Assembly (NCBI GenBank): GCA_048884965.1
Contig: JBHLQH010000056.1
Location: 1-15,705, forward strand
Direction of reading: 5' to 3'
Source of the DNA: Candidatus Thorarchaeota archaeon
GTDB lineage: Archaea > Asgardarchaeota > Thorarchaeia > Thorarchaeales > Thorarchaeaceae
DNA: 15,705 bases
The position numbers and the translations under genes are program-made. The notes beneath the pieces are model-generated. The model was not told the DNA's origin and searched no databases. It saw only the letters and a program-made list of their open reading frames with translations. Numbering within the stretch: position 1 is the first letter of the stretch; each line of letters starts with the position of its first letter. Shown here piece by piece: positions 8,780 to 9,410 of the stretch.

Positions 8780-8968
8780 TCATTTGACGCGTATCATGAA
8801 CTCATATGTAGGTCTTGATGAGTCTTCTTTTGATAGTCGGTCCGCTTCAGCTCTCATCTTCTTCAGTGCATCATCGGCATCTGTTCCTCTTGTTTCAAGA
8901 CCAAGCTCCTCAGATGTTGCAACATAATGACCTTCCTCCTCACGTAGGATAACCTCAACTATTCTCAT
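8780..8968 (-). CDS. Small HicB-like (UPF0150-type N-terminal fold) protein, about 62 aa, with no evident DNA-binding domain
   Basis: VEVILREEEGHYVATSEELGLETRGTDADDALKKMRAEA resembles the HicB consensus (viie.dedg.yva.vpdlpg..t.G.t.eeA...l.ea). Start is ATG 8968, alternatively 9013. Confidence 0.6.
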   Translation of the reverse strand: MRIVEVILREEEGHYVATSEELGLETRGTDADDALKKMRAEADRLSKEDSSRPTYEFMIRVK

Positions 8969-9068
8969 TCGCTCATTCGCGTCACACTCGAACAGTAAGT
9001 AATAAGACTTCATTGAATGTGCCTCAATTATACCGATTATTGGTTGGTCCTTTATCTCAGAATGATTG

Positions 9069-9080
9069 CAGAGAAAAGAA
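9069..9080 (-). terminator. Pyrimidine/U-rich tract, putative archaeal terminator of the candidate ncRNA
   Basis: The minus strand reads UUCUUUUCUCUG a few nt after the 3' arm of the 18-bp closing helix. Confidence 0.45.
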
Positions 9081-9370
9081 GGTGGGCACAATAACGTGGG
9101 TAACACTCGGCTGCCGCGCCACCACCTTTAACATTTTTCGCCGAGCGTTCCAGACAACCTATTTTGAGGTTGGTGCAAGATACATCACCGCACGCCATAG
9201 TAACGTATCGACCCACATTTGTTACTGCGCCCTTAGTCCACAATTATTGCAAGGGACCTAGACCAAGATATAACTTACGGTCTACGGTTTTTTCCCCTCT
9301 TAGTGGCAAGAATTGAGGTGGACGTGCATGACTTGTTCGTGCGAAGCAAGTCCTACGTCTATACAACCCC
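9070..9370 (-). ncRNA. Candidate large structured non-coding RNA of unknown family; the 5' end may extend to ~9410
   Basis: Hand-identified nested helices: 9232-9221/9095-9084 (12 bp) plus 9216-9211/9101-9096 (6 bp); 9209-9199/9189-9179 (11 bp); 9172-9167/9160-9155 (6 bp); 9149-9140/9111-9102 (10 bp); 9315-9306/9250-9241 (9 of 10 bp); 9284-9279/9264-9259; 9352-9347/9335-9330; 9359-9355/9325-9321. Six G-U pairs in the 3' domain would be A-C mismatches on the plus strand. Ends in a U-rich tail. Confidence 0.7.
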
Positions 9371-9410
9371 ATCTTTGCTTAAAAAGAATACTTGTGTGGC
9401 GCGAAGTGGG

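Follow-up and report, generated by a model that had tools for sequence, protein, structure and literature searches.

A stretch of Candidatus Thorarchaeota DNA of 15,705 nt (hereafter the window, whose numbering is used throughout) carries, on the minus strand at 9232-9081, a probable stand-alone gene, specific to Thorarchaeia, whose product would be a small and stable structured RNA that acts in trans. The RNA has a covarying fold on a defined strand, occurs as a single copy per genome, is restricted to one family, Thorarchaeaceae, and is tied to no one neighbouring gene; it is a new family, well supported, without a counterpart in Rfam 15. Its predicted length is ~155-170 nt (conserved core ~152 nt), about half of the 300 nt given in a preliminary description, which had proposed a minus-strand noncoding RNA of two domains: the standalone, structured, minus-strand RNA stood, whereas the two-domain architecture fell, only its 3′ domain being conserved.

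The architecture consists of a closing helix divided by an internal loop into P1 and P2, a four-way junction, and hairpins P3 to P5 (Table 1). The sequence contains every helix listed in the preliminary description, and folding 9070-9410 on the minus strand to minimum free energy (-112.5 kcal/mol, with z = -2.96 as against z = -1.22 on the plus strand) recovered them. The minus strand folded better than shuffled sequences and the plus strand did not stand out: the 3′ domain (9074-9233, minus strand) reached z = -4.08, with none of 200 shuffles equal, against z = -1.45 for the same bases on the plus strand, while the 5′ part (9238-9372, minus strand) gave z = -2.05, with 9 of 200 shuffles equally good. 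The closing helix and three hairpins of the 3′ domain thus hold up as a strong fold that is conserved and covaries; the hand count of 83/160 GC over 9081-9240 was identical on recounting, and both boundaries named there, a hairpin at 9438-9418 and a pyrimidine/U tract at 9080-9071, exist. The minus strand was assigned because G-U pairs are frequent in the 66-sequence alignment, many pairs being G-U or U-G in a large share of the sequences, which agrees with the earlier argument from G-U pairs on the minus strand against A-C mismatches on the plus strand.

Table 1. Features of the RNA and its surroundings (window positions, 5′ region first), and 3′-end copies in four relatives
Feature	Position	Strand	Details
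Hairpin A of the preliminary description	9315..9370	-	outside the conserved RNA
BRE/TATA-like box	9267..9280	-	ccgtaagttatatc; loop and 5′ arm of the previously proposed hairpin B
A-rich 5′ leader, predicted	9233..9246	-	start inferred at ~9240-9246 from the usual archaeal TATA-to-start spacing
P1, 5′ strand	9221..9232	-	GGGCGCAGUAAC; partner 9095-9084
P2, 5′ strand	9211..9216	-	GUGGGU; partner 9101-9096
P3 hairpin	9179..9209	-	loop region holds conserved UGGCGUGCGG at 9197-9188
Junction strand J3/4	9175..9178	-	UUGC; highly conserved unpaired columns in both alignments (A1/A2)
P4 hairpin	9152..9174	-	conserved CAAAAU loop, 9166-9161
GG junction	9151-9150	-	conserved
P5 hairpin	stem 9149-9140 / 9111-9102; 28-nt loop 9139-9112	-	loop holds GGUGGUGGCGCGGCA (9126-9112)
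P2, 3′ strand	9096..9101	-	ACCCAC; partner 9216-9211
P1, 3′ strand	9084..9095	-	GUUAUUGUGCCC; partner 9232-9221
ACC tail	9081..9083	-	unpaired, invariant; GCCCACC invariant
Pyrimidine/U tract	9071..9080	-	likely archaeal terminator; T/C-only stretch after ACC in nearly all homologues examined
3′-end copy, L104 (same genus)	+493..+539 after RNA	same	insert: hicB/hicA-like pair (by eye)
3′-end copy, L121	+1912	same	insert: M3 peptidase
3′-end copy, L128	+1392	same	insert: other co-directional ORFs
3′-end copy, L146	+2171	same	insert: other co-directional ORFs

Covariation was assessed in two alignments, one of 23 copies built with MAFFT independently of the model (A1), the other of 66 sequences fitted to the covariance model and hence leaning towards the structure (A2), with which A1 agrees. 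Paired cells amounted to 93.9% in A1 (36-47% with partners slid) and 95.3% in A2 (36-45% with partners slid; 503 double-change cells), compensatory changes on both sides were found in 30 of the 37 modelled pairs, as the preliminary description had expected of homologues of a functional RNA, and none of 500 shuffles of A1 attained the observed covariation values. Every helix contributed: six of nine modelled pairs in P1 (97.6% of cells paired), two of three in P2 (99.5%), eight of ten stem pairs in P3, six of six in P4 and eight of nine in P5 (98.6%) showed changes on both sides. An all-against-all column scan returned no extra covarying pairs save an extension of P1 and the outer closing pair of P4 (9174-9152, A-U / G-C). 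Spurious ORFs run across the RNA at 9052-9243 and 9013-9261; no open reading frame is conserved among the homologues, whose core lengths (147-218 nt) fall into all three classes modulo 3, and the codon-level conservation of an overlapping frame that had been named as speaking against an RNA is absent.

The invariant set of the RNA comprises the ends GGGC and GCCC-ACC, UGGCGUGCGG in the P3 loop region (eight bases invariant, two ~90% conserved), the UUGC and GG junction strands, the CAAAAU loop of P4 and three elements of the 28-nt P5 loop: CAAAA, AGGUGGUGGCGCGGCA and the core GGUGGCGCGGC of GGUGGUGGCGCGGCA. The pentamer UGGCG is present twice, each time in a single-stranded context, in the loops that carry UGGCGUGCGG and UGGCGCGGC. 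Three homologous loci (L075, L076 and L077, from genomes G100, G063 and G016) have one or two extra hairpins (~25-65 nt) within the P5 loop, between AGG and UGGCGCGGC, which extend the RNA to 196-235 nt; because hairpins insert there, AGG and UGGCGCGGC are separate modules, with the intervening region facing away from the core.

To determine the distribution of the RNA, blastn and covariance-model searches were carried out. By blastn, the source genome (G000) holds one copy; 22 of the 36 family genomes searched gave a single match each and the 24 from other families gave none, with alignments spanning only window ~9071-9290. When the family was searched with covariance model R1, 68 of 86 Thorarchaeaceae genomes proved to have the RNA, always as one copy; they represent 16 of 16 genera and include 21 of the 23 high-quality genomes of the family; the RNA of the source genome is intact, scoring 148.5 bits. 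In a sample drawn from the whole phylum, matches were obtained for 33 of the 37 genomes of the family, as against 0 of 113 from other Asgard families (one chance match, E = 0.84); the class Thorarchaeia amounts approximately to Thorarchaeaceae plus one other genome, and the latter was without a match. When 185,579 species, each represented by one genome, were scanned with a pattern, 62 stretches came back, of which the archaeal ones all came, to judge from the titles, from Thorarchaeota-type MAGs (7/7 tested fitted the covariance model), while none of the 17 bacterial ones passed it. The search of Asgard genomes suggested in the preliminary description thus found homologues, in Thorarchaeaceae only. 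No copy of the RNA turned up in G014 (97% complete), G015 (93%) or the single-contig G030, all good genomes of the family, so it may be dispensable; a synteny search upstream of FtsX genes in G030 and in G037, from a sister family, likewise returned no homologue. In G014 and G015, an FtsX protein of G028 used as the single query found no match (E ≤ 1e-20), so that the entire locus may have been lost or may fall into a gap in the assembly. At another locus (L137, genome G011), +39..+61 after the RNA, a 23-nt near-copy of the P5-loop segment AAAACATTAGG.GGTGGCGCGGC followed by a T tract was observed, and it has the appearance of a leftover from a second copy that was cut short.

Comparison with known RNAs left no described family as a match. 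Against Rfam 15, the window gave no match at the gathering threshold and just sub-threshold partial snoRNA-type matches at E ≤ 10, and the 18 diverse homologous loci gave nothing relevant within the RNA, in keeping with the earlier claim that no described family applies. C/D or H/ACA guides were rejected, the partial matches scoring 12-19 bits (41-54 needed) and only one of them lying within the RNA, over 22 nt; none appeared in the 18 homologous loci. Archaeal RNase P RNA (RF00373), archaeal SRP RNA (RF01857) and 5S rRNA (RF00001) had no match in the window, and a divergent form of any of the three was rejected because each has its own gene elsewhere in the genome: RNase P RNA on contig C16 (157 bits), a full-length SRP RNA on C50 (84.5 bits), unlike this RNA in sequence, and 5S rRNA on C7 (63.7 bits). 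5S rRNA is moreover a three-way junction of ~120 nt; this RNA is a four-way junction. Y RNA or YrlA was likewise set aside, with no TROVE match in the 95.7%-complete genome and no Rfam Y RNA match. Among the full texts consulted and the 2026 preprints on intergenic elements searched by term, no description of the RNA was encountered.

How might such an RNA act? The invariant single strands, namely the loops with UGGCGUGCGG and UGGCGCGGC, the AGG/GGU element, the two CAAAA stretches and the junction, would form a working surface that binds one or more proteins, possibly a dimer seated on the two UGGCG loops, and the RNA would be the core of a lineage-specific ribonucleoprotein. Judged from its invariant loops and repeated motif, this protein-binding role is the most likely one; it is favoured because the motif is repeated, both loops are G-rich and cannot pair with each other, and no conserved complementary site was found. 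An unlikely alternative is a base-pairing regulatory RNA, whose G-rich loops would serve as seeds for C-rich sites in mRNAs or in a second small RNA, or in which AGGUGGU would mimic a Shine-Dalgarno sequence and the CCACCU tail the 16S 3′ end. The loops would suit such a role, being 9-15 nt long, single-stranded and nearly invariant, and AGGUGG in L5 is perfectly complementary to CCACCU at the 3′ end in the manner of Shine-Dalgarno and anti-Shine-Dalgarno; however, the 14-nt core of L5 has no complementary site in the genome at ≤1 mismatch, complements of 9-mers from the loops are scattered in coding DNA with no pattern, and the invariance of the loops leaves no covariation. Other pairings within the RNA were also considered. 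Kissing between L3 and L5 was rejected, at most 4 bp being found by eye between two G-rich loops, and a two-tier G-quadruplex in GGUGGUGGCGCGG was weakened by the hairpins inserted inside it in three genomes and by one genome without a GGU repeat. A pseudoknot of 5-6 bp, GGU(GG)-(CC)ACC, between L5 and the 3′ tail is possible, both of its sides being invariant.

The upstream end of the RNA was predicted from its putative promoter. TTATAT (9273-9268), taken in the preliminary description as the apical loop of a hairpin B within the RNA, falls within the ccgtaagttatatc box, and a purine-rich box with a TATA-like element (e.g. ACCGAAAGTTATAAC) recurs 36-50 nt before the first G of the RNA in most genera; a promoter-type box was present in 51 of 65 upstream regions, with eight near -85 (genus g3). 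In the source genome, boxes of this type stand at comparable distances before the genes for tRNAs, 5S rRNA and RNase P RNA, and because of this resemblance to the boxes of stable-RNA genes we read ccgtaagttatatc as the promoter, most likely lying upstream of the transcript. Transcription would proceed from this BRE/TATA box, with a predicted start ~10 nt before the first G (G9232), and would end in the U tract. In A1, the second base back from that G is an invariant A, and the adjacent base is mostly A. Hairpin A, the other part of the proposed 5′ domain, could be aligned to no relative, even one whose RNA is 81% identical, and blastn alignments to the closest relatives begin only at window ~9282-9290; the genus alignment shows no conservation, and the hairpin is specific to the source genome. 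With hairpin A unconserved and the loop of hairpin B a promoter box, the RNA is read as ~155-170 nt and not 300 nt.

That a ~300-nt transcript with hairpins A and B as its 5′ domain is nevertheless made, at least within the genus, is an improbable variant. The 5′ part does fold somewhat better than its shuffles; the arms that flank the TATA box show genus-level compensation (AGACC/GGUCU versus GAACC/GGUUC; GGUUCC/GGGACC); and a second promoter-like box, TTCTTTTTAAG at ~9388-9378, is spaced so as to put a start near the 5′ end of hairpin A. Against this, hairpin A is unalignable even to the closest relative, the box is retained beyond the genus without the flanking arms, these arms could just as well be a palindromic DNA site at which a regulator binds over the promoter, and the T-rich box may be the mere terminator of the upstream gene. 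The inverted-repeat arms themselves (window ~9255-9287, minus strand) have compensatory changes in the six genomes of the genus only and may be either an operator palindrome at the promoter or a genus-specific RNA hairpin. Further upstream (window ~9378-9403, minus strand), TTCGCGCCA...TTCTTTTTAAG is conserved in the genus just past the stop of an upstream gene for a 277-aa membrane protein and would be either the T-tract terminator of that gene or a second promoter.

The ends of the RNA resemble those of tRNAs. GGGC/GCCC followed by ACC is the commonest tRNA end of the source genome less the final A: in 64 of 64 homologues the base that follows is T (51) or C (13) and never A, though the tRNA genes of the genome encode CCA and terminate in ...GCCCACCA. 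In the proposed ribonucleoprotein, the long closing helix and the ACC overhang would form a tRNA-like end that shields the RNA from degradation, and RNase P could trim its 5′ side. The RNA is not itself a tRNA, since ARAGORN found no tRNA or tmRNA in the window, and the P4 loop is a 6-nt CAAAAU, not a 7-nt loop with U33. In a bolder version, which we consider improbable, the RNA copies the tRNA end (GGGC...GCCC-ACC) and its UGG/GGU loops grip NCCA, so that the particle would sense, hold or process tRNA 3′ ends or act as a decoy for tRNA-end enzymes, the same end serving as an anchor for the capture of cassettes that carry no integrase. T-box RNAs and RNase P (loop L15) use UGG-type loops to bind NCCA ends. 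A mimic at work in tRNA biology in general, whether its UGG loops bind NCCA ends or RNase P, the CCA-adding enzyme or a synthetase takes the RNA itself as a substrate or decoy, is quite improbable: the identity of its end with the commonest acceptor end, the 12-bp closing helix in the source genome, GGU/UGG within invariant loops and the use of the gene as an insertion site in the fashion of tRNA genes would fit, but T, D and anticodon arms are missing, the terminal A is never encoded, and neither G3-U70 nor any other known identity element is present. Elsewhere in the genome, tRNA genes that encode CCA are packed on contigs C4 and C9 into dense tandem arrays (~19 and ~5 genes), with only a few bases between neighbours; unlike the dispersed tRNA genes, these may stem from a mobile element, a virus or contamination.

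The neighbourhood of the RNA was compared across genomes. In many genera the RNA is followed, 20-190 nt away and on the same strand, by genes for a small membrane-anchored protein and an FtsX-type permease, the ancestral arrangement, in which the downstream gene carries its own CTAATTAAG box in the spacer; in the source genome this pair lies on another contig, without the RNA, and elsewhere the next gene encodes an M3 peptidase, a ferredoxin-domain protein, a TPR protein or a small HicB-like protein. Because the neighbouring genes vary, the RNA most likely acts in trans and is no dedicated leader for a single class of genes. The alternative that it works in cis as a riboswitch or attenuator, with P1 and the U tract controlling read-through into the downstream gene, could draw on the co-direction of that gene in 35 of 38 loci (upstream orientation 19:19), on short spacers (20-150 nt) and on a junction conserved like a ligand pocket; it is nonetheless very unlikely, as the downstream genes share no function, a promoter-like box stands between the RNA and the ancestral gene, the RNA of the source genome is intact yet apart from the ancestral pair, and the insertion of cassettes in a single orientation accounts for the co-orientation. 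Of the two options in the preliminary description, a standalone RNA or a large leader of an undescribed Asgard class, the former therefore held and the latter did not.

Evidence for such insertion came from four relatives, in which a direct copy of the last 23-42 nt of the RNA, including GCCCACC (GCCTACC in L121) and a T tract, was found 0.5-2.2 kb downstream on the same strand (Table 1), with the ancestral membrane-protein gene following the copy in L104, L121 and L128. No integrase was seen in the inserts examined. The 3′ end of the RNA gene is thus inferred to be an insertion point for gene cassettes, with duplication of the target, and site-specific insertion at this end would explain both the variable downstream content and the co-orientation. 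tRNA and tmRNA genes likewise serve as insertion sites for foreign genes. An integron attC-type site, that is, a folded single strand of DNA acting in recombination in place of an RNA, would account for cassettes at the 3′ end of the element, but is extremely improbable, with one full copy per genome, cassette ends that are partial copies of 23-42 nt, numerous G-U pairs on one strand only, and a stable-RNA-type promoter and terminator on either side. In the window itself, a 77-aa ORF lies directly behind the RNA (8780-9013, minus strand) and shows by eye a HicB-like N-terminal motif (GHYVATSEELG...DDALKKM); it had no Pfam match and no adjacent HicA-like partner ORF. Two further sites on the minus strand were recorded, neither of them significant: 8671-8642, after the first downstream gene, identical by eye to the 3′ end of the RNA at 20 of 28 positions, and 3734-3720, after the last co-directional downstream gene, the best non-self profile match (E = 5.2), in which the first ten bases of the site, CCACCTTCTT, are an exact match. 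Both may be decayed cassette boundaries.

Collectively, 30 covarying pairs, 68 genomes and clear invariant surfaces define a new RNA family. Of all known lineages, the Asgard archaea are most closely related to eukaryotes; to our knowledge, few of their noncoding RNAs have been described beyond the universal ones. Since the family is well supported and has invariant surfaces, it offers a concrete target for finding a ribonucleoprotein in an uncultured lineage, and annotation pipelines should include it, as the stretch is now read as empty or given spurious ORFs. Several known systems offer comparisons. CsrB and RsmZ are protein-sequestering RNAs with repeated loop motifs and, like the present RNA with its UGGCG, display a short G-rich motif repeatedly in single-stranded loops of a stable RNA; here there are two copies only and the motif is another one, so that the parallel is a mechanistic analogy, not homology. 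With tmRNA, YrlA/Y RNA and mascRNA the RNA shares 5′ and 3′ ends paired as an acceptor-like helix with a discriminator-like A and CC, and with tmRNA and tRNA the use of its gene as an insertion site for foreign genes, whereas it lacks a T arm and an elbow, its genome has no Ro/TROVE gene, and the final A is unencoded. The raiA-motif RNA of bacteria and HgcC to HgcG of hyperthermophilic archaea are orphan, lineage-specific noncoding RNAs found by comparative genomics, and they are alike in being free-standing, single-copy genes for RNAs of 150-200 nt with a covariation-proven multi-stem fold and invariant loops; the RNA described here differs from them in that it matches none of them in sequence or structure (Rfam 15), in its restriction to Thorarchaeaceae and in its tRNA-like ends.
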